The notes beneath the pieces were generated by a model. The model saw only the letters and a program-made list of their open reading frames with translations. It ran no database searches and had not been told where the DNA came from. A DNA stretch of 40,933 nucleotides from positions 1-40,933 of the forward strand of contig JACPZY010000092.1 of the NCBI GenBank assembly GCA_016195215.1, written 5' to 3'. The stretch's first letter is position 1, and each line of letters starts with the position of its first letter. Below are positions 1,588-27,179 of the stretch, one piece after another. Both the position numbers and the translations under genes were made by a program. This DNA is from Actinomycetota bacterium. Lineage in GTDB: Bacteria; Actinomycetota; Actinomycetes; Nanopelagicales; Nanopelagicaceae.

Positions 1588-2514
1588 TTAGGAAATACCC
1601 AAACCAGCCATATTTTCCAACATAAATTCAATATCAATTTGACATGCATCACTTGGATTCATAAATTTATTTAGGACGTTGTCCCACCATTTTACGGTGC
1701 TTACTAACGACTCCTCTTGCACTTCAATTGAAGTTCCGGCGACCAGGGCCTCTAGTGCCAAGATGTACCCCCGAAGCGGATCTAGTACGTGTTGCCATGG
1801 TCGAGTACTTTGAGGATTGCGAACCGTAGTAGCGAATCCATTTGCGTATCCGCGAATGAGATCAGGAAGTAGTCGATTCTCTGCCCAATCTCCTCCTCCA
1901 AGAACATTTCCCGCACGAAGCGAAATCACCTTTGGCCCACCCGAAACTTTAGCGATCTGTCGCCATGCAGCAGATGTAGCTTCTGTACCAACTTTGCTGG
2001 CGCTATAAGGATCTTTACCTTCTAAAGCATCGGTCTCAACAAATGCACGACCCGAATTATCATTCCGGTAGACCTTGTCAGTAGTGATGACTCCGATTGC
2101 TTCGACTGAACCGACTTCAAAAGAAGCGCTGAGGACGTTTACTGACCCCATGACATTAACTTCAAAAGTCTCCCTGGGAGTCTTGTACGACTCAAAGACC
2201 AATGGTTGCGCAGCCATGTGTATCACCACTGAGGGAGCAGTGCTCTCGACAAACTTCAATACAGATTCAAAATCGCGAATATCAGTAAAAGATTCCTGTA
2301 TCACACCGAAACGGTTGGTCCGTTCAAAGAGCGAATTTGGTAGAGCAGGCAGTGACAAACCTACAACCGGAACATCTAGTTTCTCTAAGAGGAGAGTGAG
2401 CCAGGTTCCCTTAAAGCCTGTGTGTCCGGTTACAAGGACAGGACCTGGCAAATCTCGAAGTTTCTTGCCCAGTGAATGATGCATAGGGCAATAATAGTCG
2501 AACCTCATAGCCAC
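1588..2514 (-). CDS. rfbG: CDP-glucose 4,6-dehydratase (short variant)
   Basis: Motifs VLVTGHTGFKGTWL, TTDKVY, DPYSASK (YxxxK), RAGNVLGGGDWAENRLLPD and RPWQHVLDPLRGY match the RfbG/DdhB pattern. The likely start is Met at 2484 (MHHSLGKK...). The product is about 60 aa shorter than the canonical enzymes I remember. Confidence 0.8.
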   Translation of the reverse strand: MAMRFDYYCPMHHSLGKKLRDLPGPVLVTGHTGFKGTWLTLLLEKLDVPVVGLSLPALPNSLFERTNRFGVIQESFTDIRDFESVLKFVESTAPSVVIHMAAQPLVFESYKTPRETFEVNVMGSVNVLSASFEVGSVEAIGVITTDKVYRNDNSGRAFVETDALEGKDPYSASKVGTEATSAAWRQIAKVSGGPKVISLRAGNVLGGGDWAENRLLPDLIRGYANGFATTVRNPQSTRPWQHVLDPLRGYILALEALVAGTSIEVQEESLVSTVKWWDNVLNKFMNPSDACQIDIEFMLENMAGLGIS

Positions 2515-2534: not shown

Positions 2535-4235
2535 TCAGAGATCCTTAATGGAATCACCCATAGCCATTTTGGGTAACGCCTTCGCTTCTCGAGAGACTAC
2601 GAATTCCAGTAGAAGCGGACTCGAATTCCAGCCTCCAACTCTTTCCTCAAGCTCCTTCAAGTCACGGGAATTTTCAAATCGTAAGGCAGGAATTCCAAAA
2701 GCTTCTGCCACTTTACAGAAATCGGGAGTGCTATACCCATCCCGGGTAGAGATATAACGCCCATCGAGATTGCCCTCTTGAAACTGAGCGACCATTCCCA
2801 ATTGATTATTGTTTATTACACATATGGTGATCGGTAACTGCAATTGCATAACCGTTTGAAGTTCGGCGATACTCAATTGGGTACAGCCGTCGCCGGTGAT
2901 GACAACCCATCGACCAGGCTGACTAATTGAAGCACCAATGGCAGCAGGCAATGCAAAGCCCATTGCCCCAAGCCCGCCAGAGGTTACAAATCGTTGATGA
3001 GCACCTAGTTCCAGGGATTGAGCCGCCCACATCTGGTGTTGGCCGACATCAACGATGTAGCCATTTGATTCTGCGAAGACGTTTGAAAGCCATCGGATGA
3101 TATCGTCTGGGTTGAATTCAACATTCGAACCTTGTTCCGCGGCTTGTGGTCGTTGAACTTTTTCTTCTTTGAATTTAGCAAGGTGGGATTTCGAATCAAA
3201 TTCGATCTCTGAATTAACTAGAGCCTTGAGAAACGCTTTCAAATCAGTCCCGACACACACATCGGCTTTTATGCGCCCGCTGAGTTCTTCCATATCCACA
3301 TCCACTCGGAAAATCTTCTTTCCCTGCAGGAAAGCGTGTAGATCAGTTCCTGTTTGTCGAACATCAAGTCGAGTTCCGAGAGCGATAATCAAATCAGAAG
3401 TGGCGAGCGCTCTATTAGCCCAGCGGTTACCGTAACTGCCGATCATGCCCACTCGGTAAGGGGAATCGCTTGGAAGAAGGTCCACGCCCATGAGCGAAAA
3501 GACCACGGGTAGTTTGAGCGCCCCTACCACTTTCCTAAAATATTCGACGGATCCAGACGCGCGAATGCCTCCACCCGCGAGGATGATTGGTGAAATACTC
3601 TGACTGATTAATTTCTCTAGTGCTCCAATCTCCTTAGTAAAACCTTCCCGATCTTCATTCTTATCGTGCGTGTTCAGCACAACAACTGAGGATACAGGCT
3701 CCTGTTGAACATCTATTGGAATATCTAGAAGCACTGGCCCAGGCCTGCCTTGATGCGCAATGTTCCAAGCCGCGTTCAATTCGGAAAGCAAATCCGTTGA
3801 GGAATTAATACTGACCGCCCTCTTTGTAATTCCTCTGGCTGTTGAGACAATATCGAGTTCTTGGAATCCGTTCTGCCGCTGCAACTCCGAGCGTTTGGCT
3901 TCATTCTGATTTACCTGACCTGTAATGAAAACGGTTGGAATCGAGTCAAAATATGAGGATGCGATGGCAGTTATTAGATTCGTGGCACCAGGACCGCTTG
4001 TTGCCATCGCCACCGAGGATCGGCCGCTAATTCTCGTACCGCCTTCCGCGGCGAATCCCGCCGCTTGCTCATGACGAAGACTAATAATTGGCGTCTTGCC
4101 CAATCGAGAGACTGCATCGGTTAAGAAAGCAATCATTCCGCCAGAAAGCTGAAAGACGGCGGAAACTTTCTTTTCGGCAAGAAACTGAGCCACTAAATCG
4201 GATTTGGTAAAAGTGGAGGGCTCCGAAGTCACCAA
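2535..4235 (-). CDS. ThDP-dependent acetolactate-synthase-like carboligase (YerE-like candidate)
   Basis: 566 aa. The N-terminal Pyr domain has the catalytic Glu (RHEQAAGFAAEG) and SGPGATNL. The C-terminal ThDP/Mg motif is GDGCTQ...(X24)...NNNQLGMV. It lies in an operon with rfbG. The start may be GTG at 4232 rather than TTG at 4235. Confidence 0.8.
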   Translation of the reverse strand: MVTSEPSTFTKSDLVAQFLAEKKVSAVFQLSGGMIAFLTDAVSRLGKTPIISLRHEQAAGFAAEGGTRISGRSSVAMATSGPGATNLITAIASSYFDSIPTVFITGQVNQNEAKRSELQRQNGFQELDIVSTARGITKRAVSINSSTDLLSELNAAWNIAHQGRPGPVLLDIPIDVQQEPVSSVVVLNTHDKNEDREGFTKEIGALEKLISQSISPIILAGGGIRASGSVEYFRKVVGALKLPVVFSLMGVDLLPSDSPYRVGMIGSYGNRWANRALATSDLIIALGTRLDVRQTGTDLHAFLQGKKIFRVDVDMEELSGRIKADVCVGTDLKAFLKALVNSEIEFDSKSHLAKFKEEKVQRPQAAEQGSNVEFNPDDIIRWLSNVFAESNGYIVDVGQHQMWAAQSLELGAHQRFVTSGGLGAMGFALPAAIGASISQPGRWVVITGDGCTQLSIAELQTVMQLQLPITICVINNNQLGMVAQFQEGNLDGRYISTRDGYSTPDFCKVAEAFGIPALRFENSRDLKELEERVGGWNSSPLLLEFVVSREAKALPKMAMGDSIKDL

Positions 4236-4408: not shown

Positions 4409-5719
4409 GTGTCTCCAGGAACAAGTGACAAGATTGCGGATCTAGTCACAGCAGCCATGAAAGAGCGCCACCCAAGCAAACCCTTTGTGCCCGGAGAGAC
4501 AACAATTCCCGTATCGGGAAAGGTCTTTGGCGAGGCCGAGCTCACAGCGGCCGTGCAGGCAAGTCTCGATTTCTGGCTAACTGCAGGACCCTACACAGAG
4601 AAGTTTGAAAGCCAACTCGCAAGAACTGTCGGCATGCGCCACTCTTTCATGGTCAACTCAGGCTCTTCGGCGAATCTGATCGCTCTCACAGCACTAACCA
4701 GTCCTTCTCTTGGAAAGAGAGCACTCGAGCCAGGTGATGAGGTGTTAACGGTGGCAGCAGGATTTCCGACTACAGTCACACCGATTCTCCAGAATGGATT
4801 GATACCAGTCTACGTAGACGTTGATCTAGAAACTTACGTTGCCAATGATGCCGCTCTCGAAAGTGCAATCGGTCCGAAAACGCGAGCAATCATGATGGCC
4901 CACACGTTAGGCAATCCCGTCAATCTTGACTTGGTTAAGGAACTTGCAAAGAAGCACCATCTCTGGTTTGTCGAGGATAGTTGTGACGCACTCGGGGGCA
5001 CATACCGGGGACAGAATCTTGGAAGTTTTGGAGACCTCTCCACATTTAGTTTTTACCCCGCACATCACATCACTACAGGCGAGGGCGGAGCTGTTTTGAT
5101 TAAGAAGGTTGCTCACAAGAGGGCGGTGGAATCAATCAGGGATTGGGGACGCGATTGTTGGTGTGCTCCCGGATGCGAGAACACGTGCCTAAAGAGGTAC
5201 GAGTGGCAACTCGGCGAACTACCGATGGGGTATGACCACAAATATATTTATTCGCATCTAGGTTACAACTTGAAATCCGGAGATATCCAGGCTGCAATTG
5301 GTCTGGCGCAACTTGACCGCCTAGCGAGTTTTGTCGAGCTCCGACGAAAGAATTGGGCATACCTGAGGGAAGGTTTAGCCGATCTCGAGGATTTTCTCCT
5401 GCTTCCAAAATCTACCTTGCACGGAGACCCCTCCTGGTTTGGTTTTGCTATAACAGTTAAGAAGCAGAGCCCCAAAACTCGGAACGAAATAGTAAAGGCT
5501 CTAGACGAGAGAAAAATTGGAACCCGATTACTATTTGGGGGAAATCTCCTACGCCAACCAGCCTTCATTGGTACACCACGACGAGTCCACGGTGAGCTCC
5601 CAAATACGGACATTGTCATGAATGACACCTTTTGGATGGGGGTCTGGCCCGGGTTGACCACCCCCATGTTGGATTACATGATTGAATCTATTCACGAAAT
5701 TCTTGGAGGAGCCAAATGA
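4409..5719 (+). CDS. rfbH: CDP-6-deoxy-L-threo-D-glycero-4-hexulose 3-dehydrase (E1, PMP/[2Fe-2S] enzyme)
   Basis: DegT/DnrJ/EryC1 aminotransferase fold. The motif FYPAHHITTGEGG carries His where aminotransferases have the PLP Lys. Cys spacing is C-X57-C-X1-C-X7-C by my count (DSC...DCWCAPGCENTC). GTG start at 4409. Confidence 0.9.
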   Translation: MSPGTSDKIADLVTAAMKERHPSKPFVPGETTIPVSGKVFGEAELTAAVQASLDFWLTAGPYTEKFESQLARTVGMRHSFMVNSGSSANLIALTALTSPSLGKRALEPGDEVLTVAAGFPTTVTPILQNGLIPVYVDVDLETYVANDAALESAIGPKTRAIMMAHTLGNPVNLDLVKELAKKHHLWFVEDSCDALGGTYRGQNLGSFGDLSTFSFYPAHHITTGEGGAVLIKKVAHKRAVESIRDWGRDCWCAPGCENTCLKRYEWQLGELPMGYDHKYIYSHLGYNLKSGDIQAAIGLAQLDRLASFVELRRKNWAYLREGLADLEDFLLLPKSTLHGDPSWFGFAITVKKQSPKTRNEIVKALDERKIGTRLLFGGNLLRQPAFIGTPRRVHGELPNTDIVMNDTFWMGVWPGLTTPMLDYMIESIHEILGGAK

Positions 5720-6510
5720 AGGTGATCATCCTTGCCGGGGGCTTAGGAACACGCCTTTCGGAGGAGACCGAAAGTAAGCCAAAACCGATGGTTTTGATTG
5801 ACGATAAGCCAATTCTCTGGCATTTGATGAATACATTTTCGCAGCAGCGCTTTGATGAGTTTGTCCTAGCTTTGGGATATCGAGGTGATGTTATTAAGCG
5901 CTGGCTCCTTGATCTGAATGAACTTGAAGGGGACATCATAATTGATACCTTGAATAAGAAAGTTCATCACCTAAAGAAAGGGAATAACTATTCTTGGAAA
6001 GTAACCGCTCTTGAAACTGGTCTAAATACACAGACAGGTGGACGAATCGCTCAATGCATGAAGGCATTCCCTGGTGAGCGTGTTATTGCAACCTACGGTG
6101 ATGGTCTTGCAAACATCTCGATCAAGAATCTCCTTGAATTCCATGAATCGCACGGAAAATTGGCAACCGTGACGGCGGTAAGACCACCTGCGCGATTCGG
6201 ACATTTACACATAGAAGGTTCGCAAGTCACGCATTTCGGAGAGAAGAACCAATCCGATGAAGGGTGGATCAACGGCGGCTTTTTTGTGCTCGAGCCAGAG
6301 GTTGCACAATTTGTTGCAGACGACAACGAGCCGTTCGAAAAGGGAGCCTTACAAAGACTTGTCGAAAAAGGTCAACTTATGGCCTATCACCATCATGACT
6401 TTTGGCAGCCAATGGATACGCTCCGCGAGAGGAACGATTTGGCGGCTATGGCAAAGGAGACCCCACCGCCTTGGTTACGTCCCGCCAACCCCGTTCAAAA
6501 AGGTCGGTAG
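5716..6510 (+). CDS. rfbF: Glucose-1-phosphate cytidylyltransferase
   Basis: The N-terminus MKVIILAGGLGTRLSEETESKPKPMV...KPILWHLM matches the RfbF/DdhA signature. It has a 4-nt ATGA overlap with rfbH. Confidence 0.9.
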   Translation: MKVIILAGGLGTRLSEETESKPKPMVLIDDKPILWHLMNTFSQQRFDEFVLALGYRGDVIKRWLLDLNELEGDIIIDTLNKKVHHLKKGNNYSWKVTALETGLNTQTGGRIAQCMKAFPGERVIATYGDGLANISIKNLLEFHESHGKLATVTAVRPPARFGHLHIEGSQVTHFGEKNQSDEGWINGGFFVLEPEVAQFVADDNEPFEKGALQRLVEKGQLMAYHHHDFWQPMDTLRERNDLAAMAKETPPPWLRPANPVQKGR

Positions 6511-7155
6511 ATGGCTACCAAGAGAATTTTGGTTTTTGGTGCTTCCGGAACTCTTGGATCAGCTTGCGTGAAAGAATTACGTGAGAATCAGCTGGAAGTG
6601 ATTTCCGTTGGTCGAGACCTCCGTGTGCTGGATGAAATTTAATTGATTGATGGAGCCGTCTGGGCGCAGGGAGCAAACTTCACTGGAGGCATCTCAGAGA
6701 CAAGCACTCAGCAGTGGGACGAGATATGGGATGCAAACTTCAAATATATTGTGCGCTCACTTGAAATTCTCTTGGGAAAGAAATTGTTTAGCCACGGCGC
6801 ACGTTTGGTCGTGGTTAGCTCGGTCTGGCAAGAAATCACGCGAGCGCAGAAAGTCGCCTATATCGCCTCAAAAGCAGCGGTTGGCGGGTTGGTCAGAGGT
6901 TTAGCGGCTGATTTGGGCAGAGAAGGAATCTCGATAAATGCAGTTCTGCCTGGCGTCGTCGATTCACCAATGACACGTCAGCATTTAAATAGCGGACAAA
7001 TTGAGCGGGTCGTCCAGGGAACACCGAAGGGTCAACTCGTCACTCCTGAGGAGATTGCGAAGACAGTTGCTTTCCTGGTTGGACCCGATTCCGCAGGTAT
7101 CAACGGACAATCCATCATTGTTGATGGCGGATGGTCGATCACCCGCAATGTTTGA
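6511..7155 (+). pseudogene. Short-chain dehydrogenase/reductase interrupted by an in-frame TAA (6640-6642)
   Basis: ATG at 6511 directly follows the rfbF stop. It reads MATKRILVFGASGTLGSACVKELRENQLEVISVGRDLRVLDEI, then TAA, then continues in the same frame as LIDGAVWAQGANFTGG...YIASKAAV...DGGWS. The Rossmann GxxGxxG lies upstream of the stop and the catalytic YxxxK lies downstream. Confidence 0.8.
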
Positions 7156-8215
7156 ACTAACAATCCAGAGTTCAACACGCTCCTATCCGATAATTATCGG
7201 ATCAGGCGTGATTGAGGGTTTAAAGGATCGCGATTTTGTGATCCTTGCCGACATTAATCTTTCCAAGATCGCTCAAAGTTTGGGAACTAGAGTGATTGAG
7301 CTTCCTGCGGGTGAGGAGAAGAAGACATTAGCCACCTGCGAGATGGTGCTATCACAATTGAAATCACTGGGGGCAAATCGCGACACTGTCCTTCTCGCGA
7401 TCGGTGGCGGTTACATCCAGGATATTGCCACGCTCGTAGCCTCTCTTTACATGCGGGGAATTACGTGGAGTTACGCACCCACAACCCTGATGGCGATGAT
7501 GGATTCCTGTATTGGTGGCAAGAGTTCGATCAATGTCGGTTCGGCCAAAAACCTTGTTGGTAACTTCTACCCGCCGATGGAAATAATTATTGATCCCACT
7601 TTTATTGCTTCGCTGGATGATTCTGCAATCGCTTCAGGTCTATCTGAAGGTGTCAAGATTTGCTATGCGAAGGGTCCAGCGTCATTTGAAAAATTCTGCA
7701 CTTATCGAGCCACTGTCGAGGACTTTGGTTCGACACTTGCTGCCGAATGGATTGCTCATGTACTCAATGCCAAGAAATGGTTTGTAGAGACGGACGAGTT
7801 CGACCAGGGTTCACGGAAACTCCTCAACTTCGGACATACCTTCGGACATGCCCTTGAATCGGCCACGAATTTTGCTATCCCTCATGGAATTGCGATCAAC
7901 ATCGGTGTGCTGGCGGCTTTACAACATCCTCTTTCTCACCAGGGTTCGCCAGAACAGAGACTCAGAGAAGAGTGCCTCGCCATTCTTACTCCGGTTCTTA
8001 AGCGTCTTAAAACGGACCTTGGCTCCTTCGATGTGAAGAAGTTCGAAGAGGCTTTTCTTGGTGACAAGAAGCACTCTTCGCAGGATTTCCGACTCATCCT
8101 CTCCCAACAGGGCACTTTGAGAGTGGTCGAAGTAGAACGGAACGATCAGGAGATTGCAGTGGTGGTTGAGGCGATGCGGAAGGCTCTGGAGATGGCGCGG
8201 GCGGGGAAGAAATGA
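7148..8215 (+). CDS. 3-dehydroquinate-synthase-like (sugar-phosphate-cyclase superfamily) enzyme
   Basis: Motifs: GGGYIQDIATLVAS, PTTLMAMMDSCIGGKSSIN, KNLVGNFYPP, ETDEFDQGSRKLLNFGHTFGHALE and IPHGIAINIG. The start was set to ATG at 7148 (MFELTIQ...), overlapping the SDR stop by 8 nt. The ORF-track start at 7001 is an upstream extension. Confidence 0.8.
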   Translation: MFELTIQSSTRSYPIIIGSGVIEGLKDRDFVILADINLSKIAQSLGTRVIELPAGEEKKTLATCEMVLSQLKSLGANRDTVLLAIGGGYIQDIATLVASLYMRGITWSYAPTTLMAMMDSCIGGKSSINVGSAKNLVGNFYPPMEIIIDPTFIASLDDSAIASGLSEGVKICYAKGPASFEKFCTYRATVEDFGSTLAAEWIAHVLNAKKWFVETDEFDQGSRKLLNFGHTFGHALESATNFAIPHGIAINIGVLAALQHPLSHQGSPEQRLREECLAILTPVLKRLKTDLGSFDVKKFEEAFLGDKKHSSQDFRLILSQQGTLRVVEVERNDQEIAVVVEAMRKALEMARAGKK

Positions 8216-9984
8216 AGGAGAGTTACGCCGACCAGTTCTGCGACTGGTTGATCGATCAGGGGTATAGCCACTGCTTTTTCGTCGCAGGTGGCAACATCAT
8301 GCACCTTCTTAATTCGGCTAGAACCCGTTTTACCTGCATCCCTGTGGTACATGAGGTGGCAGCGGGAATCGCTGTCGAGTACTTCAACGAGACCTCCCCT
8401 GATTCCAGAGCATTTGCACTTGTGACGGCAGGCCCAGGTGTCACGAATATTGTCACGGCCATTGCCGGGGCGTGGTTGGAGAGCCGCGAACTTCTGGTGG
8501 TCGCTGGACAGGTGAAGAGCTCAGATTTAGCATCACCAGATTTGCGCCAGCGTGGAATACAAGAGGTGGATGGTGTTGCTCTTGTTCAATCGATTACAAA
8601 AAGAACTCTTCAGATTGAGCGACCACTGCCAGAATCAACGATTCTAGAAATCTGCAAGACGAGTAAGGAAGGTCGCCCTGGTCCTGTCTTCATTGAGTTC
8701 TGTCTCGATGCTCAAGGTGCTCCTTCAGAGATCTCACTCAATGACGGCGCGAAAGTGTCGAGCGCCATTCGATTGAAGCCCACATCCGATGAAGTCGGAA
8801 AGTTGAATGCGGCATTGTCGAACTGTGAGAGACCTATCTTGCTAATCGGTGGCGGGTTGGCTCGGGCAGAGATGGCGACACTGCTTCCCGATCTTGAGTC
8901 ACTCGGTCTGCCCATCATGACGACGTGGAACGCGCTGGATCGTATTGACGCGTCCCATCCGCTCTATTGGGGTCGGCCAAATACGTGGGGCCAACGCAGG
9001 GCAAATGTCCTTATACAACAGTCCGATCTGATCATCGCCGTGGGCACACGACTGGGGCTCCAGCAGACTGGATTTAATTGGCAGGGCTTTGCTCCACTGG
9101 CAACAATTGTTCAGGTGGATATTGATCCGTCAGAACTGAGAAAAGGACACCCGAGAGTGGACTTGGCGATCTGTGCAGATGCGAGCGAGGTTTTAGGTGG
9201 AATCAATATTGAAGATGATAGTTCTCGTTGGAGTGAATGGAAGACTTTCGGGAGGAAAGTCAGAGAACTACTTCCGAATAATGAGCGCGCAAACTCGCAT
9301 AAATCCGGATACCTCAATCCTTACGACTTTGTAGAAGAACTTTCCCAGGTGCTAGATGGGGATGATCTCCTCATCCCGTGCAGTAGCGGCGGGGCATTCA
9401 CGACCATCATGCAGGCTTTTGAGCAGAAATATGGACAGAAGGTGGTGACGGATAAAGGGCTTGCAAGTATGGGTTATGGATTATCTGGCTCGATAGGTGC
9501 TTCCTATGCGAATCCCGGGAAGAGAGTGATACTCATCGAAGGTGATGGTGGATTTGCACAGCATATTCAGGAGATCGGAACTGTCGTCGCGGGCCATCTG
9601 CCGATAAAGATCTTCATCTACGAGAACGAGGGATATGCGTCCATTCGGATGACTCAAACCAATTATTTTGGGGGCGAGTATGTCGGTTGTGATCGATCAA
9701 CGGGGTTAGGGCTTCCCAACTGGGAGAGTCTTTTTACATCCTACGGAATCAGAACACTCTCGCTGGATCCCTCCGATCCATTCTCCGATTCAGTACTTCA
9801 ATCCTTGAAGAGTGATGAGCCAATTGCATTTATTGTTCCCATTGATCCAGAGCAGAGTTATTTTCCAAAGATCACGAGTCGCGTCCTGGAAAATGGCAGT
9901 ATGGAATCGAACCCGCTACATCTCATGAGCCCCGAACTTCCAGCGGATGTGACCAAAGAGGTATTTAGGTACCTAAATGCATAG
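8212..9984 (+). CDS. Second ThDP-dependent acetolactate-synthase-like enzyme
   Basis: 590 aa with HEVAAGIAVEY (catalytic Glu), TAGPGVTNIV and the C-terminal motif IEGDGGFAQH...IYENEGYASIRM. It has a 4-nt ATGA overlap with the upstream gene. Confidence 0.8.
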   Translation: MKESYADQFCDWLIDQGYSHCFFVAGGNIMHLLNSARTRFTCIPVVHEVAAGIAVEYFNETSPDSRAFALVTAGPGVTNIVTAIAGAWLESRELLVVAGQVKSSDLASPDLRQRGIQEVDGVALVQSITKRTLQIERPLPESTILEICKTSKEGRPGPVFIEFCLDAQGAPSEISLNDGAKVSSAIRLKPTSDEVGKLNAALSNCERPILLIGGGLARAEMATLLPDLESLGLPIMTTWNALDRIDASHPLYWGRPNTWGQRRANVLIQQSDLIIAVGTRLGLQQTGFNWQGFAPLATIVQVDIDPSELRKGHPRVDLAICADASEVLGGINIEDDSSRWSEWKTFGRKVRELLPNNERANSHKSGYLNPYDFVEELSQVLDGDDLLIPCSSGGAFTTIMQAFEQKYGQKVVTDKGLASMGYGLSGSIGASYANPGKRVILIEGDGGFAQHIQEIGTVVAGHLPIKIFIYENEGYASIRMTQTNYFGGEYVGCDRSTGLGLPNWESLFTSYGIRTLSLDPSDPFSDSVLQSLKSDEPIAFIVPIDPEQSYFPKITSRVLENGSMESNPLHLMSPELPADVTKEVFRYLNA

Positions 9985-10032
9985 AGGTATAGTTCCTTGA
10001 TGCCCACCTATTGAGGCCGAGTTGGAGTGTTG

Positions 10033-10833
10033 ATGAACCGCACAGAGCGCAAAATGGTAGAGATCCTTGAAAAGGGAAAAGAGTCGCATGGGGTCGTCAG
10101 CGTCAAGGCAGAATTTGAAGCCGAGGGCACGCGGCCCGATGAGCTTCTCCGCTTAGTCGATGTTGCGCGCTCGGCCGGACTCCCCCTCACCCTGAAAATC
10201 GGCGGGTGCGAAGCGATACGCGATCTCCTAGAAGCCAAGCAGATAGGGGTGAAGTACATCGTCGCTCCGATGATCGAAACTCCATACGCCTTGAGCAAGT
10301 ACATCCACGCCCGCGACACGGTCTACTCACCCGACGAACAAGAGGGCATGCACTTCCTCTTTAACATGGAGACGATTACCGCCTATCACCACCGCGTGGA
10401 GATGGCGGAGATGGCAAAGGGCGCGCTCTCTGGTTTTGTATTTGGTCGCGTTGACTTCTCGGGCTCGATGGGGCTGGGACGCGAGGCAATAGAGACCGAT
10501 GAAGTGACGGATAAAGTGATTGAGGTATCCAAGCTCTGCGCGAGTACCGGGCTTGAACTAGTGATGGGTGGCGCAATTTCCATCGATGCCCTTGCAAACC
10601 TCAAACGAGTTCACGCGACTGGGCTCACCCGTTTTGAGACACGTAAGGTCGTCTTTGCAGGAGCATCGGCGGTCTCAGAAGGTATTGAAGATGGACTTCT
10701 CAACGCGGTCCACTTTGAACTGCTCTGGCTACTGAATAAGCGCGACTACTACAGCAACATCACGGAAGAGGATCACCATCGAATCGACATGCTGGAATCG
10801 CGCTGGCAGGTTCTAGGAAAGAGCGTTCTCTAA
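10033..10833 (+). CDS. HpcH/HpaI-aldolase / citrate-lyase-like protein (PEP/pyruvate-binding TIM-barrel superfamily)
   Basis: [11 protein letters not shown] and [14 protein letters not shown] resemble the MIE.P and G.ND motifs of this superfamily. ATG at 10033 lies 5 nt after GGAG; the ORF-track start is GTG at 10027. The family assignment rests on motifs only. Confidence 0.55.
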
Positions 10834-10837
10834 ACCA

Positions 10838-11788
10838 ATGGCACTTGCCAAGATCTCCACGTTATTGCGGAAGGAATCCATCCCCCTTAAGCGGGTCCTG
10901 ATCACTGGGGCCTCGGGTTGGATAGGGCGAGAGACGATTGCGCTACTACAAGAAGTACTCGGCGATCAATTTGCGCATCGTGTGACTCTGGCCGGCTCGC
11001 GGGACTCCACGGTTACGATTGAGGGAGTCACGCACCATGTGCGGAAACTCTTTGACATCAACTCAGCGGAACACTTTGACACCGTCATCCACCTGGCTTT
11101 TCTTACGCAGGAGAAGGCCCACATCATGGGCGCCGAAGAATTTTCCCGCCTCAATCGGCAGATCTCAGAGCACGTATATCAGCTCTGTCAGCAATCAAAT
11201 GTCAGGCATCTTCTAGTCGGATCGAGTGGTGCCGCCGATCCGAAAATCCTAAAAGCCTTCCAAGATCCCGCGAAGCGAATCTACGGCGATTTGAAGCGCG
11301 AGTCCGAAGAATTGTTCGCGGAGTTACGCAATCACGATCATATCAAGGTGGAAATCTGTCGAATATGGTCGATCTCGGGAAGCAATTTTCTCACTCCCTC
11401 CAAATATGCCCTCGGCAATTTTATTGAGCAGGCAAAATCAACCGGTAATATCCATCTGGCAAACCCAGCATCGGTCAGGCGTGCATACATAGATGCTGGC
11501 GAAATGATCGGTGTTCTCCTGCTGGACCTTCTCAAAGGGAACGGGAAACTCATCAGCTCGGGGGGCTTTGAAACCTCGCTACAGGAGCTGGCCAGACTTG
11601 TACTTGACGAGTTCAATCCAAGCGGGCGAGTCATCCTCCCAATGCAGACAAATGAGCACCAGGATGATATTTACAGTCCCGATGTAGAACCATTTAATCG
11701 GCTTGCGAAAAATTTTGGGGTGAAATTAAGTAATCTGGAGGAACAGATAAGAATTACCGCCACTTCCAGTATCTTCGCTGCCAAGTGA
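10838..11788 (+). CDS. NAD-dependent epimerase/dehydratase-family (extended SDR) protein
   Basis: VLITGASGWIGRE Rossmann motif, a YGDLK catalytic Tyr/Lys pair, 316 aa. It is the last gene of the plus-strand sugar operon. Confidence 0.7.
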   Translation: MALAKISTLLRKESIPLKRVLITGASGWIGRETIALLQEVLGDQFAHRVTLAGSRDSTVTIEGVTHHVRKLFDINSAEHFDTVIHLAFLTQEKAHIMGAEEFSRLNRQISEHVYQLCQQSNVRHLLVGSSGAADPKILKAFQDPAKRIYGDLKRESEELFAELRNHDHIKVEICRIWSISGSNFLTPSKYALGNFIEQAKSTGNIHLANPASVRRAYIDAGEMIGVLLLDLLKGNGKLISSGGFETSLQELARLVLDEFNPSGRVILPMQTNEHQDDIYSPDVEPFNRLAKNFGVKLSNLEEQIRITATSSIFAAK

Positions 11789-11798
11789 GAGGTTTTAT

Positions 11799-12734
11799 TT
11801 AAAAGCCGATTTTCTCACTTACTACAAAATTTGGACGCCCCTTAACTTCCTCATAAACCAGACCGAGGTACTCACTCACAATTCCGAGCATTAATGCCTG
11901 CATACCTAGACCAAAAAGTATGAGCGCGATAATCGAGCCAAAGCCAGCAAATGGCACTCCGACAAAGAACCAGAGGATCGCTAGCAATACCATCGCCAAG
12001 AGCGAGAGGCTCGAAAGGACCAGACCAAAAGCCGAAATAAAACGGAGCGGCTTATAAGAGTGTGCAAATATTCCCTTGAGTGCTAATTCGACAACTTTCA
12101 TTGAACTGGCGTTGGATACACCCGCAAATCTTGGTGGGCGATTCATCGGCACTCCCACTGAATTAAATCCAACCCAGGCAAAAAGTCCACGGACAAAGCG
12201 ATTTCGCTCAGTCATCCCCCGAACTGTCTCATAAACCTTCCGATCGACAAGGCGGAAATCGGAGGCATTCGCTGGGATCCCCCCATCAGAGAGACTGCCC
12301 GCTATCTTGTAGAAGAGTCGAGAATTGAAACGGCGGAGGAAGCTGCTGCCCTGACGCTCTTGAACTAAACCATAAATATTCTCATACCCTTCTTCCCACT
12401 TTCGCAGGAATGCCGGGATCAACTCTGGTGGATCCTGGAGGTCGGCCGTCATCAGCACGCAAGCGTCACTATCGACAAACTCGAGACCAGCCGTAATCCC
12501 GCCGTCCATACGGAAGTTCCTGGAAAGTTTCAGGATTTTAAACTGAGAGTTCTTCTCTGAAATTGCCTTCAACTTCTCCCACGTATGGTCGGTAGAACCA
12601 TTCTCGACGATGAGCGCCGACCACTCATACGCTGCTTCGCTATCGAATACGGCTTTTAAACGGGAAGTGAGTTCATCCACACACGCTTCCTCATTGTAAG
12701 CAGGAATGACGATCGCGACTGATTTCATTATCAA
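11799..12734 (-). CDS. GT2 polyprenyl-phosphate glycosyltransferase (GtrB/ArnC/Dpm1-like)
   Basis: VAIVIPAYNEE, VENGSTDHT and TADLQDPPELIP motifs, plus two C-terminal hydrophobic helices. This is the architecture of lipid-carrier-charging GT2 enzymes. Confidence 0.8.
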   Translation of the reverse strand: MIMKSVAIVIPAYNEEACVDELTSRLKAVFDSEAAYEWSALIVENGSTDHTWEKLKAISEKNSQFKILKLSRNFRMDGGITAGLEFVDSDACVLMTADLQDPPELIPAFLRKWEEGYENIYGLVQERQGSSFLRRFNSRLFYKIAGSLSDGGIPANASDFRLVDRKVYETVRGMTERNRFVRGLFAWVGFNSVGVPMNRPPRFAGVSNASSMKVVELALKGIFAHSYKPLRFISAFGLVLSSLSLLAMVLLAILWFFVGVPFAGFGSIIALILFGLGMQALMLGIVSEYLGLVYEEVKGRPNFVVSEKIGF

Positions 12735-12783: not shown

Positions 12784-14088
12784 TCAACTACTTGCTACGA
12801 CTCTCAAATTCTCTTTTCTTCTTACCCGTCCGATAACACTCTTTACCGTGCAGATAAGTGCTAAGAGCAACCAGATGAGACTCGAGATTGTCCTCATTGC
12901 ATTCTCGCGTCCGCTTGAAACGGGAATCACGATCGGCAGAAGAGTGGTCAAAATGGCAATTGTTGCGACCGAATACACAGAATCGAAAGTGGCGCTGCCA
13001 CCTTTTGCCAAAGCTTTTTTGGAAGTTCCCAGGGAGAGCGCAATTGGGACTATAAGGAAGGCAGTTGCGTAATGCAGGCTCAGCGGGGCTACCAACCATA
13101 ATGTGGAGACGAGCAACAAGATTGCAATCTCATCTGGGAGGACTCTGGCTACTACTACGAAGAGGATGAGTATGAAGTAGAAAATCCCAATCCACCAAGC
13201 ATGTGACAGTAAAAACTGATACTCAGCATTTAAAGAGGGAAATCTCGAAAGTGTATGAGTGAAGGCGCTATAGAGAGAGACATTGCTGGGGTTTATTTCC
13301 GTAGGCATCGTGCCTCGATATCCAAGAATCCCACGAGCAATTGCATTGATTTTTTCAACGTAACCTCCCTGAAAGAGAGTTGCCACTATGAATGAGGCGC
13401 CCAGACTTAAGAGGATTGCCTCTGTCGCGGCCATGAACTTTCTCCGCGGAATGTATGCAAGTACAAGGAGAATCGGGTACACCTTGAAGGCAATAAGTAA
13501 GGCCAGCAGGATTGAAGACTTACCCCACTTTTCCTCTTTTAGCGCCCGAAAGAAAAGGTAGAGGGGTGTCACGAGGAGCCCCACAGAATTTCCTCTATCG
13601 AGGGCTGCAATAAAGCCGACAGAGAGAGCAATGGGAACGAGAAGAGTTCCGTACTTGCCAAAAAGATTCTTCCGCTTCAATTCTGCATATACGGGGTAGA
13701 GCATCGAGCCCATAGAGAGGAGGAGAAAGAGAATAAGTCCAGGTTTGTATGGCAAGAAAGAGAAGACCCAAAATAGGCCCATGGCTACAGGTGGGTAGTT
13801 ATTCGATACTGAGATGGTATTTATCCACGGATTACCGGCCCTGGCATAATCATGAGTCAGTAGGTAGTCCCCAAAAGTGTGCACGCCAAAATATCTGTCG
13901 CCAACTACAACATTAACAACATACCGTGGAGGCTCATTCGAGTAGTAAGAAATAAGCGCATGGATATCGTAATTGTAATATCCGCCTAGAACCCAAGCCA
14001 GGATCGCCGAGAGAACCAACCCCGACATTAGAAGTGGCAGTATCCCAATTCTGACCCGCCCACCAACTCGAATCCCAAAATTGTTCAT
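12784..14088 (-). CDS. Polytopic GT-C glycosyltransferase, DUF2029/GT87-like
   Basis: 434 aa with many hydrophobic segments. The first extracytoplasmic loop, FGDYLLTHDYARAGNPW...NNYPPVA, resembles polyprenyl-phosphate-sugar-dependent GT87 enzymes. Confidence 0.65.
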   Translation of the reverse strand: MNNFGIRVGGRVRIGILPLLMSGLVLSAILAWVLGGYYNYDIHALISYYSNEPPRYVVNVVVGDRYFGVHTFGDYLLTHDYARAGNPWINTISVSNNYPPVAMGLFWVFSFLPYKPGLILFLLLSMGSMLYPVYAELKRKNLFGKYGTLLVPIALSVGFIAALDRGNSVGLLVTPLYLFFRALKEEKWGKSSILLALLIAFKVYPILLVLAYIPRRKFMAATEAILLSLGASFIVATLFQGGYVEKINAIARGILGYRGTMPTEINPSNVSLYSAFTHTLSRFPSLNAEYQFLLSHAWWIGIFYFILILFVVVARVLPDEIAILLLVSTLWLVAPLSLHYATAFLIVPIALSLGTSKKALAKGGSATFDSVYSVATIAILTTLLPIVIPVSSGRENAMRTISSLIWLLLALICTVKSVIGRVRRKENLRVVASS

Positions 14089-17545: not shown

Positions 17546-19621
17546 TTACTTCTCTCTCGGTTTACGTTTGAGTCCTTGCGGAATTCGACTGGTTCGCTCT
17601 TTCTTTGGAATCTTGCTCAATGCTGGCAGTTCTGCAACCCGCGTAATAATCGTATGTTGAATATCCGCCAGGCTCATCTGTGCATCGACGACTAAATAAC
17701 GTTCGGGGTCCAGGACGGCCAACTGGAGAAACTCTTGGCGAATTCTCTCGTGGAAGGCGAGGGGCTCTGCCTCAAGTCGATCCTTTTTCTTGAGCCGAGA
17801 TAGGCCGACTTCAGCTGGAAGATCAAGTACCACTGTAAGAGTTGGGAAGAGGGACTCGGTTGCCCAACGCGAAATTCGAGCAACTTCACCAGGTTCAAGA
17901 ACTCGACCGGCACCTTGATAGGCAATGGAAGAATCAAAGTACCGATCCGTGATGACGATTTCGCCCGCTTCCAGAGCTGGACGGATTACAGAATGAACGT
18001 GGTGGGCACGGTCGGCTGCATAAAGTAAAGCCTCGGCCCGCGGGGAAATATCACCGGTTGAATGGGAGAGCAAGATTTCTCTAAGACCCTTGCCAAGATC
18101 GGTGCCGCCGGGCTCGCGAGTTTGAAGAACTTCATGTCCTTCACTCTCGAGCCATTTCTTTAACAACTTCACTTGCGTGGATTTACCAGATCCCTCTCCG
18201 CCTTCAAATGCAATGAAAAGACCCTTGGTCGATGCGCCGGTAATGGATCCAAGTTCCCCCTTGATCGCATTTGAAATATCGCTCCAAATAGAAATATTGG
18301 GGCGATCCTTCATCTGCTGGTAGGAGACCACGCCAATAAGTGAAGCAACCACGCCTGCAATTAGTATTGTTATGGCCGCCCCGTTGTAACTCACGTTGGT
18401 ATTTTGAATACTTACACTGTGCCGTCCCACCGCCGCCGCGATAAGTGGCGATATCGCAAGAACGGCCACGAGTGTCACTCGGATGAGCGATTGCATAAAG
18501 GCAAAGGTACGGCCGCGCACATCGTCGGCAACTTCCATTCCTAGCATTGTGAAACCAGTTACCCAGCAGACGCCGGAAAAAGAGCCGAGAACTATGACGA
18601 TTAAGACGGCCAGAACTAAGTTGGGGATAAGCGCGAGAAGAACAAGGAATAATCCTGCGATGGTCAGCGAGGCGCCGAAGAGCCGGCGCCGAGAGAACTG
18701 CGCAAATACCTTAGGTCCAAAGGCAATACCTATAGCCAGACCGGTGAAAACTGACCCGAATAGAACACCGTATGCGGCATCGCCACCACCGAGGTCTCCG
18801 ACAAAGGTTCGGGCAAGACCGATAACTGCGCCGGCGGCGACAAATGCGCCGACCATTCCGACAATAAGACCGCGCACAATTTTAGATTTACTGACGAACC
18901 GCCAACCTTCAAGGAGCGACTTGGCAACTCCAACTTCGCTCGCGTTCTTCGATGCAGCTCCCTTTGGTATTTCATGCAGACCCCAGGCGGTCCATGCCCC
19001 GAAGGCGAAACTCGCTGCATTGATATAAAGCGCCGAATCGACTGAGTCGATTGTAAAGAAAGGTAGCGCACTTGCGAGCGCGCCATTTACAAGTGCTAAG
19101 AAGGAGAAGAGAACGGCGGCGATCGGCGCGCTGCCGTAGGCGGCTAATAATGAGACTTGATTGGCACTCTCCAATTTCTCCTTAGGCACTAAATTCGGAA
19201 CACTCGCCTCTTTTGCCGGCGACCAGAAGAGGGTGACACACTCAACCAGAATGGTGGCGATGTAGAGCCAGAGGTAATTACCGATGATAGGTATTGAAAT
19301 GTAAAAACCGGCACGGATAATATCCGTGACAATCATCAACCGACGGCGATCGAAGCGATCGGCGATTACTCCAGCAAGTGGTCCGAGGAAGACAGATGGG
19401 ACCAGGCGGGCGATGAAAACACCCGCGATCGCAAAGTTAGCCTTTGCGTAGTTGCCTCCTGAAAGTTGCTGGGCCATGGCCGTTGTCGCCAGAAGACCGA
19501 GCCAGTCCCCCAGGGAGGAGAAAGCCATCGATCGCCAGAGTTTGCGGAAGGCAGGGATGGCCATGACACCGCGCGTCTGATCCGGCGCGGGCGGGGTGGG
19601 GGTCGGAAACGAGCGTGCCAC
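17546..19621 (-). CDS. tmk: MFS-type membrane domain fused to dTMP (thymidylate) kinase
   Basis: The N-terminal portion of about 440 aa is polytopic and MFS-like. The C-terminal part carries FIAFEGGEGSGKSTQ, REPGGT and DRYFDSSIAYQGAGR, which are Tmk motifs. Confidence 0.85.
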   Translation of the reverse strand: MARSFPTPTPPAPDQTRGVMAIPAFRKLWRSMAFSSLGDWLGLLATTAMAQQLSGGNYAKANFAIAGVFIARLVPSVFLGPLAGVIADRFDRRRLMIVTDIIRAGFYISIPIIGNYLWLYIATILVECVTLFWSPAKEASVPNLVPKEKLESANQVSLLAAYGSAPIAAVLFSFLALVNGALASALPFFTIDSVDSALYINAASFAFGAWTAWGLHEIPKGAASKNASEVGVAKSLLEGWRFVSKSKIVRGLIVGMVGAFVAAGAVIGLARTFVGDLGGGDAAYGVLFGSVFTGLAIGIAFGPKVFAQFSRRRLFGASLTIAGLFLVLLALIPNLVLAVLIVIVLGSFSGVCWVTGFTMLGMEVADDVRGRTFAFMQSLIRVTLVAVLAISPLIAAAVGRHSVSIQNTNVSYNGAAITILIAGVVASLIGVVSYQQMKDRPNISIWSDISNAIKGELGSITGASTKGLFIAFEGGEGSGKSTQVKLLKKWLESEGHEVLQTREPGGTDLGKGLREILLSHSTGDISPRAEALLYAADRAHHVHSVIRPALEAGEIVITDRYFDSSIAYQGAGRVLEPGEVARISRWATESLFPTLTVVLDLPAEVGLSRLKKKDRLEAEPLAFHERIRQEFLQLAVLDPERYLVVDAQMSLADIQHTIITRVAELPALSKIPKKERTSRIPQGLKRKPREK

Positions 19622-26381: not shown

Positions 26382-27179
26382 TTAGATTTTCAGAACAGAC
26401 TTATCCGGAAGTGGACAATCCGCCAAAACACCAGGCAACGAACTGTTGGCGCCGATCCACCCAGCGAGATCCAGGTTGATGTAACCAGATAATCTCAAAA
26501 GAGTCTCATGGATTTCAGTGATAGACATGCGTCTCTCTGCTTTCCCGTCGGCCTCCTTTTGACCATAAGCGGGAATTCCCCAAATTACATGTTCGTGGTG
26601 TGCCACTCTGTTACGTGCAAACTGAAGATCGTGAGCAGCTCGTTCAACGGTTACACGATCAAATTTGCCTACGCCAGGAAACGCTCTGTAAAGCGCGGGC
26701 TTCCACAAAAGTTCGTCATAAATCATTTTTGTACTAGATGTGATTCTTCCCGTTTTGGAGTCTTTGATGCTTTGGAACGAACCCTTACTAAGTATCTTCA
26801 CCCAGAAGCCAAACATTAGATCCGCGACGAGTTTCCCTTGCACTTCCTCAGGTGTTGCAGGGCGGCGGCTGGCTTCCCTCCCTTGTTTGATTGCATCCTT
26901 AATTAGATTCGTAGTGCCATCATCAAAGAGGTAGGGGTTATTGAACCATTTGGAGCCAAAAGTCGAAAGAAGTTCTTTGGCCATCGCACTTCGCATCGCT
27001 ACCTCGACTACGCCTAGATCGTCAAAGATGGCCAACGCCACCTGACTGTTCCATCTATAGAGTTTGGCGATATCGACGCTTTGCGCGTTCGCGACGGCAC
27101 GGTAACGTTGAAGCCGAAGTTCGGGAATAGTTTTCAACAGACGTGCGCTGATTGTCCAACCCCTTTCTTGACTCTTCAA
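26382..27179 (-). CDS. Abi_2 (AbiD/AbiF-like) HEPN-type abortive-infection family protein
   Basis: 265 aa. The N-terminus RLQRYRAV...LYRWNSQVALAIFDDLGVVEVAMRSA and the C-terminal FARNRVAHHEHVIW (R-x4-H HEPN-like motif) match the Abi_2 pattern. Confidence 0.75.
   Translation of the reverse strand: MKSQERGWTISARLLKTIPELRLQRYRAVANAQSVDIAKLYRWNSQVALAIFDDLGVVEVAMRSAMAKELLSTFGSKWFNNPYLFDDGTTNLIKDAIKQGREASRRPATPEEVQGKLVADLMFGFWVKILSKGSFQSIKDSKTGRITSSTKMIYDELLWKPALYRAFPGVGKFDRVTVERAAHDLQFARNRVAHHEHVIWGIPAYGQKEADGKAERRMSITEIHETLLRLSGYINLDLAGWIGANSSLPGVLADCPLPDKSVLKI

Follow-up and report, generated by a model that had tools for sequence, protein, structure and literature searches.

The 40,933-nucleotide contig JACPZY010000092.1 of an Actinomycetota bacterium (GCA_016195215.1), a freshwater acI-type actinobacterium of the Nanopelagicales, carries a block of genes for a short-chain dehydrogenase/reductase (SDR), a 3-dehydroquinate synthase (DHQS)-like protein, a thiamine diphosphate (ThDP)-dependent enzyme (ThDP2), an HpcH-like barrel protein and an extended SDR. 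Having analysed the whole contig, which we call the window, we consider it fairly probable that this block is the side-chain branch of a pathway to a caryophyllose-type sugar, that is, a 3,6-dideoxyhexose with a long hydroxylated branch at C-4. The neighbourhood is a conserved cassette and not a chance arrangement, and the module belongs to the published ThDP-dependent acyl-branched-sugar clusters as a widely distributed addition. The role proposed here for the DHQS-like protein and the SDR, and the alternation of this pair with a phosphatase, are possibly new as far as the literature was searched.

The chemistry of such a branch has been laid out by Steitz et al. (2022), in whose scheme pyruvate and an aldehyde are joined by an aldolase to give a hydroxylated 2-keto acid, which a YerE-like ThDP enzyme then attaches to cytidine diphosphate (CDP)-4-keto-3,6-dideoxyglucose, and a reductase finishes the branch (PMC9306805). 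In Mycobacterium marinum, deletion of mmar_2331 (aldolase/citrate-lyase family), mmar_2332 (ThDP enzyme) or mmar_2333 (glycosyltransferase) blocks the addition of caryophyllose to lipooligosaccharide (LOS) (PMC9306805, PMC5706390), and MMAR_2332, when assayed, accepts gamma-hydroxy 2-keto acids (PMC9306805). A preliminary description of this DNA, made from its letters alone, knew of no characterised pathway with this gene set; that statement has to be withdrawn in view of the published scheme, the MMAR_2332 assay and the MMAR_2331-2333 knock-outs (PMC9306805).

The M. marinum complex was compared through a proxy, M. ulcerans subsp. shinshuense, whose locus reads GtrA, RfbG, RfbH / RfbF, GT2, ThDP, HpcH-like, SDR, DHQS-like, FGGY kinase ... 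GT87. The order GT2-ThDP-aldolase in this locus fits MMAR_2333-2332-2331, and its aldolase clusters at 90% identity with mycobacterial proteins of the 'aldolase/citrate lyase family'. The window aldolase and GT2 are each 63% identical to their M. ulcerans counterparts, and ThDP2 reaches 54% along its whole length (636 bits); the values for RfbH, RfbG and RfbF are 59%, 48% and 42%. The genes for the CDP-4-keto-3,6-dideoxyhexose acceptor, rfbF, rfbG and rfbH, all adjoin the module in the window. On grounds of homology and collinearity, the window's aldolase, ThDP2 and GT2 are the counterparts of MMAR_2331, 2332 and 2333, and the link to caryophyllose, put forward in the preliminary description as a speculation, gains support from both. 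A carbohydrate kinase of the FGGY family follows the DHQS-like gene in mycobacterial loci (12568-13845 in L082, 12619-13935 in L008), an arrangement seen in 4 loci only.

Recurrence of the cassette and its alternation with a phosphatase

A search with a 14-sequence aldolase alignment, restricted to one genome per species, yielded at least 546 confirmed sites. The best 80 of these at least 546 loci were examined by mapping the window proteins onto them and clustering all of their open reading frames, and co-occurrence was counted in 48 loci from different species that extend at least 6 kilobases (kb) to either side of the aldolase gene. All 48 encode a ThDP enzyme within 9 kb of the aldolase; rfbH is found nearby in 37 and rfbF in 36. 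The SDR and the DHQS-like gene occur together in 32 of the 48 loci, the SDR alone in 2 and the DHQS-like gene alone in 1. The block of genes thus recurs in other genomes, and the three-gene module (DHQS-like, ThDP2, HpcH-like) originally singled out is real; its boundary was drawn too narrowly, since the SDR gene just upstream, which accompanies the DHQS-like gene in these 32 loci, also belongs to it.

The hosts of the best 80 loci are taxonomically diverse. They include Actinomycetota (Nanopelagicaceae, Mycobacterium, Acidimicrobiia, Thermoleophilia), Cyanobacteria (Cyanobium, Prochlorococcus), Acidobacteriota, many Proteobacteria, Eremiobacterota, Saccharibacteria and one spirochaete. Close acI relatives have the gene order of the window with intact genes.

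In 12 of the 48 loci, the place of the SDR and DHQS-like genes beside the aldolase and ThDP genes is taken by a gene for a 230-amino-acid HAD_2 phosphatase, which never occurs together with the pair. That the replacement gene encodes a phosphatase was predicted before its family was known, and it proved to be HAD_2. Loci of this type are L005, L012, L024, L025, L036, L044, L050, L051, L054, L063, L064, L066, L071 and L072. The aldolases of the DHQS-type and HAD-type loci interleave phylogenetically, with an average identity of 63% whether they are compared inside one type or across the two, and an aldolase can share up to 88% identity with a nearest neighbour of the other type. Within Mycobacterium, the locus of M. 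terramassiliense is of the HAD type and that of M. bohemicum of the DHQS type, with aldolases that are 81% identical. Considering (i) the interleaving of the aldolases and (ii) the strict alternation of the two gene sets, both types of locus probably handle the same phosphorylated intermediate, whose phosphate is probably hydrolysed in HAD-type loci and removed by elimination followed by reduction in DHQS-type loci.

Assignment of the enzymes

The HpcH-like protein of the window is a divergent member of its class. Its Pfam score against HpcH_HpaI (PF03328) is 19.5 bits, under the gathering score of 25, and the sequence alone finds no direct match among those of the PDB. Many of its homologues, in turn, bear a precomputed PF03328 match, and a profile built from 45 diverse family members matches the HpcH/HpaI/YfaU/GarL class II pyruvate aldolases at about 5e-6. 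In the profile alignment, E113 (niET) and D141 (GRvD) fall on the iET and GPtD motifs of these aldolases, which we take to be the metal-ligand motifs; the corresponding stretches, APMIETP and GRVD, are conserved in the family. The AlphaFold2 (AF2) model (predicted local distance difference test score 96.7) finds HpaI, HpcH and YfaU as its best Foldseek matches (E 6e-9, template modelling score about 0.6, identity 12-15%). By profile and predicted fold, the protein is assigned as a divergent class II (HpcH/HpaI-fold) pyruvate aldolase, the counterpart of MMAR_2331. No identical copy of it is recorded in public assemblies. Invariant K55, R139 and R204 are candidates for the equivalent of the catalytic arginine (HpaI R70). 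The family is large, with over 7000 clusters at the 90% identity level and 1081 at 50%, and has invariant motifs of its own, among them FETRK.

The nearest solved relative of ThDP2 is JanthE (8RPH, 2.7e-89), far above the acetolactate synthases (ALS), and in NCBIfam the protein falls below the cut-off of acetolactate synthase, just as the DHQS-like protein falls below that of aroB. JanthE is a YerE-like carboligase that acts on ketones and takes a broad range of donors. ThDP2 is accordingly best described as a predicted carboligase of the YerE/JanthE/MMAR_2332 type, and we propose that its donor is a long 2-keto acid. The extended SDR, which in many loci has a homologue adjoining the aldolase gene or close to it, is by analogy with the YerE/YerF scheme a candidate YerF-like reductase of the new acyl carbonyl.

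Two glycosyltransferases complete the set. GT2, which has a PgfS/ArnC-like NCBIfam match under cut-off, is the counterpart of MMAR_2333/WcaA; MMAR_2333 has been described as a glycosyltransferase of the GT-A type (PMC4403928). GT87, a gene for which is present in the M. ulcerans locus too, is probably an extracytoplasmic transferase for the lipid-linked sugar.

The DHQS-like protein has the active site of a dehydroquinate synthase in a sequence that is not recognised as one at curated thresholds. In NCBIfam, it scores highest against TIGR04425, an 'AroB-related putative sugar phosphate phospholyase' (281.8 bits, cut-off 400), and it reaches 242.8 bits against the aroB model TIGR01357 (cut-off 305); eight homologues behave alike, with 222-248 bits for aroB and 267-322 bits for TIGR04425, all below cut-off. 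All 13 of the DHQS active-site residues that we considered are intact in the window protein and invariant in 55 of 55 module-linked homologues. We take these to be the three metal ligands and the contacts to the phosphate and the carboxylate/pyranose of 3-deoxy-D-arabino-heptulosonate 7-phosphate (DAHP), as in the structure of Aspergillus nidulans DHQS. As the active site is complete, the same first steps as in DHQS are expected, namely oxidation by NAD+ and then beta-elimination of the phosphate, and the invariant carboxylate and phosphate contacts point to a DAHP-like, carboxylate-bearing substrate. Among solved relatives, DHQS is the closest (3e-39), with DOIS, EEVS and DDGS farther away (1e-28 to 6e-16); cyclitol synthesis of the EEVS/DDGS/DOIS type was rejected on account of these weaker matches. 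Within the literature that could be searched in full text, there was no published role for the DHQS-like/SDR pair and no dehydroquinate synthase linked to these sugars.

The family assignments of the preliminary description have thus held up: a DHQS-superfamily enzyme with intact metal and NAD motifs (both DHQ_synthase and DHQS_C, 13/13 residues), a second full-length ALS-like ThDP enzyme with all three TPP domains, and an HpcH-type triosephosphate isomerase (TIM) barrel, for which the family profile, the AF2 fold and Foldseek agree and whose motifs are conserved.

Proposed branch pathway and competing explanations

Combining these observations, we propose the following pathway. RfbF, RfbG and RfbH would make CDP-4-keto-3,6-dideoxyglucose. 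The aldolase would join pyruvate to a phosphorylated aldehyde, most likely D-erythrose 4-phosphate, giving a DAHP-like 3-deoxyheptulosonate 7-phosphate that is probably the 4-epimer (D-ribo). The DHQS-like enzyme, with bound NAD+ and metal, would oxidise C5 and eliminate the 7-phosphate with no ring closure, and the SDR would then bring about a net two-electron reduction to 3,7-dideoxyheptulosonate. Ring closure might be avoided by the return of the hydride to C7, as in sugar 4,6-dehydratases, or by rapid capture of the product by the SDR. ThDP2 would decarboxylate the acid and ligate the resulting C6 acyl anion to C4 of the CDP-keto sugar, and the extended SDR would reduce the new carbonyl. 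Finally, GT2 would load the sugar on polyprenyl phosphate and GT87 would transfer it to an envelope glycan. In the HAD variant, the phosphate would be hydrolysed and the terminal hydroxyl group retained.

The structure of caryophyllose can be read in these terms. By our own derivation, its C5-C10 branch corresponds to decarboxylated 3,7-dideoxy-D-ribo-heptulosonate, in which C6 (CH2) would come from the methyl group of pyruvate, C10 (CH3) would be the former phosphate-bearing carbon, and C8/C9 would have the D-erythro configuration of erythrose 4-phosphate. The pairing of the DHQS-like enzyme with an SDR, together with its interchange with a phosphatase, suggests a product that is reduced and not cyclised. 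We propose, with slightly less than even confidence, that a DHQS homologue with a complete active site acts as a non-cyclising deoxygenase on the DAHP-like acid of the aldolase, that the SDR completes the donor for ThDP-dependent branching, and that the exchange for a HAD phosphatase gives rise to a variant with a terminal hydroxyl group.

Several points weigh against this proposal. The comparison with M. marinum was made through its proxy M. ulcerans subsp. shinshuense, and by gene order only would the SDR and DHQS-like proteins of that locus correspond to MMAR_2330 and MMAR_2329, listed as LOS-locus genes with no function stated (PMC12395582). Identity between the DHQS-like proteins of mycobacteria and the window clade is only 28-32%, which puts them about as far from it as E. 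coli AroB (the clade is 36-49% identical internally and 25-31% identical to E. coli AroB), and judging by these values the two may have been recruited independently. The enol-pyranose product of DHQS cyclises spontaneously, and a non-cyclising outcome needs a special explanation. It is inferred which aldehyde is used, in which order the aldolase and the DHQS-like enzyme act, and that no ring is formed. The acceptor that Steitz et al. draw for the aldolase (compound 28) may be unphosphorylated (PMC9306805). A gene for the E3 reductase (ddhD/rfbI) is found neither in the window nor in the mycobacterial locus L082, and as none lies beside rfbH, 3-deoxygenation would need a housekeeping reductase. 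In this particular host, moreover, the pathway is probably crippled by a stop codon in the SDR gene and a deletion in rfbG.

The question of step order gives rise to an explanation in which the aldolase comes last: the DHQS-like enzyme and the SDR would first convert a tetrose 4-phosphate to 4-deoxy-erythrose (2,3-dihydroxybutanal), which the aldolase would then condense with pyruvate. It accords with the published scheme, where the aldolase takes pyruvate and a free aldehyde, and the alternation of the SDR/DHQS-like pair with the HAD phosphatase would fit removal of the phosphate from the aldehyde first equally well. On the other hand, the contacts to the carboxylate and pyranose of DAHP are all invariant, which is unexpected for a C4 substrate devoid of a carboxylate, and the 2,3-diketo product of phosphate elimination from a tetrose phosphate would, we infer, be chemically awkward. 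We regard this order of events as unlikely. Less likely still is that the DHQS-like protein is a true cyclase whose carbocyclic product (dehydroquinate-like, caryose-like or bradyrhizose-like) enters the glycan. The complete DHQS catalytic apparatus, the name of the best NCBIfam model (a 'cyclizing' phospholyase) and the unexplained origin of caryose all speak for such an activity. Ring closure, however, would consume the 2-keto group that ThDP2 needs in its donor, a simple HAD phosphatase can stand in for the pair beside near-identical aldolases, caryophyllose as the product of the homologous mycobacterial locus has an acyclic branch, and no enzyme is present that would activate or attach a free carbocycle. 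The preliminary description had offered both cyclisation of the carbon skeleton and the supply of an unusual 2-keto-acid donor for the ThDP enzymes; the latter fits our results, whereas the former is disfavoured by the loss of the 2-keto group and the phosphatase exchange.

That the genes are merely aroB and ilvB paralogues thrown together by chance, or a phosphonate pathway of phosphoenolpyruvate (PEP) mutase, phosphonopyruvate decarboxylase (Ppd) and alcohol dehydrogenase, is suggested by a superficial family resemblance only and is highly improbable, because the genes co-occur across many phyla, the scores stay below the cut-offs of aroB and acetolactate synthase, and the barrel protein matches HpcH/HpaI aldolases instead of PEP mutase. 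Paralogues of amino-acid biosynthesis were rejected as candidates on the same missed cut-offs and on the recurrence of the cassette across phyla. The phosphonate pathway was rejected as well: ThDP2 is a three-domain protein of 590 amino acids of the YerE/ALS type and not a Ppd-type enzyme, while the barrel protein has no PEP_mutase match in Pfam and its model has no PEP mutase among its top 50 fold matches.

Should the branch pathway with a non-cyclising DHQS-like step be correct, it would constitute a new reaction outcome for the DHQS superfamily, and many bacterial phyla would have in the cassette a modular means of generating long-branched sugars. Long C-4-branched sugars, caryophyllose among them, have to our knowledge been described in few bacteria only. 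Among the hosts of the cassette are aquatic groups of high abundance (acI Nanopelagicales, Cyanobium, Prochlorococcus, Methylophilaceae), and such sugars may be common surface decorations of relevance to recognition by phages and grazers. Furthermore, whether a cluster has the SDR/DHQS-like pair or the phosphatase could allow the structure of the branch to be predicted from sequence, and functionalised 2-keto acids for use in ThDP biocatalysis could be obtained from the pathway. The proposal also offers a testable role for the SDR and DHQS-like genes in the LOS locus of M. marinum.

Layout of the window and comparison with known systems

Seven closely set genes on the + strand (4409-11788), rfbH, rfbF, SDR, DHQS-like, ThDP2, HpcH-like and extended SDR, are flanked by rfbG, ThDP1, GT2 and GT87 on the opposite strand (Table 1). 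The packing of the three genes into the rfbH-rfbF operon noticed at the outset is confirmed: the ATG of the DHQS-like gene overlaps the SDR stop by 8 nucleotides, the start of ThDP2 shares a 4-nucleotide ATGA with the end of the DHQS-like gene, and the HpcH-like gene follows ThDP2 after a 48-nucleotide gap, with GGAG preceding its ATG at 10033 and an alternative GTG start at 10027.

Table 1 Genes of the branched-sugar region in the window and the matches on which their assignments are based.
Gene	Position	Strand	Basis of assignment
rfbG, CDP-glucose 4,6-dehydratase, internally deleted	1588-2514	-	TIGR02622 284.8 bits
ThDP1, YerE-like	2535-4235	-	below acetolactate synthase cut-off; nearest structure PpYerE
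rfbH (E1), CDP-6-deoxy-4-keto-glucose 3-dehydrase	4409-5719	+	NCBIfam RfbH equivalog 684 bits, cut-off 423
rfbF, glucose-1-phosphate cytidylyltransferase	5716-6510	+	TIGR02623 295.8 bits, just under cut-off 300.25
classical SDR, interrupted	6511-7155	+	single frame with internal stop
DHQS-like	7148-8215	+	Pfam DHQ_synthase + DHQS_C
ThDP2	8212-9984	+	three TPP domains (Pfam); 590 amino acids
HpcH-like aldolase	10033-10833	+	HpcH_HpaI weak Pfam match, family profile, fold
extended SDR (NAD-dependent epimerase family)	10838-11788	+	Pfam Epimerase
GT2 polyprenyl-phosphate glycosyltransferase (DPM-synthase-like)	11799-12734	-	Pfam Glycos_transf_2
GT87 membrane glycosyltransferase	12784-14088	-	Pfam GT87, 49 bits

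Two genes of the region look damaged. The SDR frame is interrupted by an in-frame TAA at 6640-6642, downstream of the GASGTLG nucleotide-binding motif, where a Gly codon stands in the alignment with intact orthologues of 214-227 amino acids, and this copy is probably a pseudogene. The TIGR02622 match of rfbG spans model positions 7-247 of 352 only, and alignment with intact orthologues of 355 and 361 amino acids places an in-frame loss of about 63 codons in the C-terminal domain, at about 1698-1778. Either lesion could stem from a sequencing or assembly error.

ThDP1 has PpYerE (5AHK, 4.5e-104) as its nearest solved relative and is only 28% identical to the mycobacterial MMAR_2332-type enzyme; by this resemblance, it might turn the same acceptor into an acetyl-branched (yersiniose-type) sugar. 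In the closest relatives (L085, L086), ThDP1 does not lie between rfbG and rfbH, and these relatives lack ThDP1, GT87 and the IS481-type transposase beside the tRNA-Thr gene.

Other features of the window lie outside the sugar genes. The IS481-type transposase gene (rve/HTH domains, 175-1374) adjoins a tRNA-Thr(CGT) gene (1486-1558), a flank that is kept in relatives, where the transposase is not seen. Positions 17546-19621 encode a 691-amino-acid fusion of a major facilitator superfamily (MFS) transporter with thymidylate kinase, which is kept in related acI genomes (L001, L086), and an Abi_2 (abortive-infection-like) gene at 26382-27179 lies amid housekeeping genes.

The closest known system is the caryophyllose system of M. 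marinum, which has the same protein families in the same neighbourhood, with rfbF/G/H, GT2 and GT87; in the M. ulcerans locus, SDR and DHQS-like genes follow the aldolase gene. The window differs from the locus of the M. marinum complex in gene order, in the clade of its DHQS-like protein (28-32% identity), in the absence of an FGGY kinase, in its freshwater acI-type host, in an extra YerE-like ThDP1 and in two damaged genes.

The yersiniose A pathway of Yersinia pseudotuberculosis (YerE and YerF) starts from the same CDP-4-keto-3,6-dideoxyglucose acceptor, made by an RfbF/G/H-type route, and proceeds by ThDP-dependent branching at C-4 and subsequent reduction, as in the pathway proposed for the window. 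It uses pyruvate directly and, unlike the window pathway, needs no aldolase, DHQS-like enzyme or SDR. Of the two ThDP enzymes of the window, ThDP1 is closest to PpYerE, whereas ThDP2 is nearer to JanthE and MMAR_2332, which take longer donors, than to the yersiniose enzyme.

With the HpcH/HpaI/YfaU class II pyruvate aldolases, the window protein shares the TIM barrel and the aligned Glu and Asp metal-ligand motifs. It differs from them by an identity of only 12-15%, a sub-threshold Pfam score and invariant motifs of its own; pyruvate-dependent aldol chemistry is expected of it, presumably with a phosphorylated acceptor. Similarly, the DHQS-like protein has its fold and domains in common with AroB and the sugar phosphate cyclases DOIS, EEVS and DDGS and possesses all 13 DHQS residues, but is set apart from AroB by its sub-cut-off score and a gene context that is not that of the shikimate pathway.

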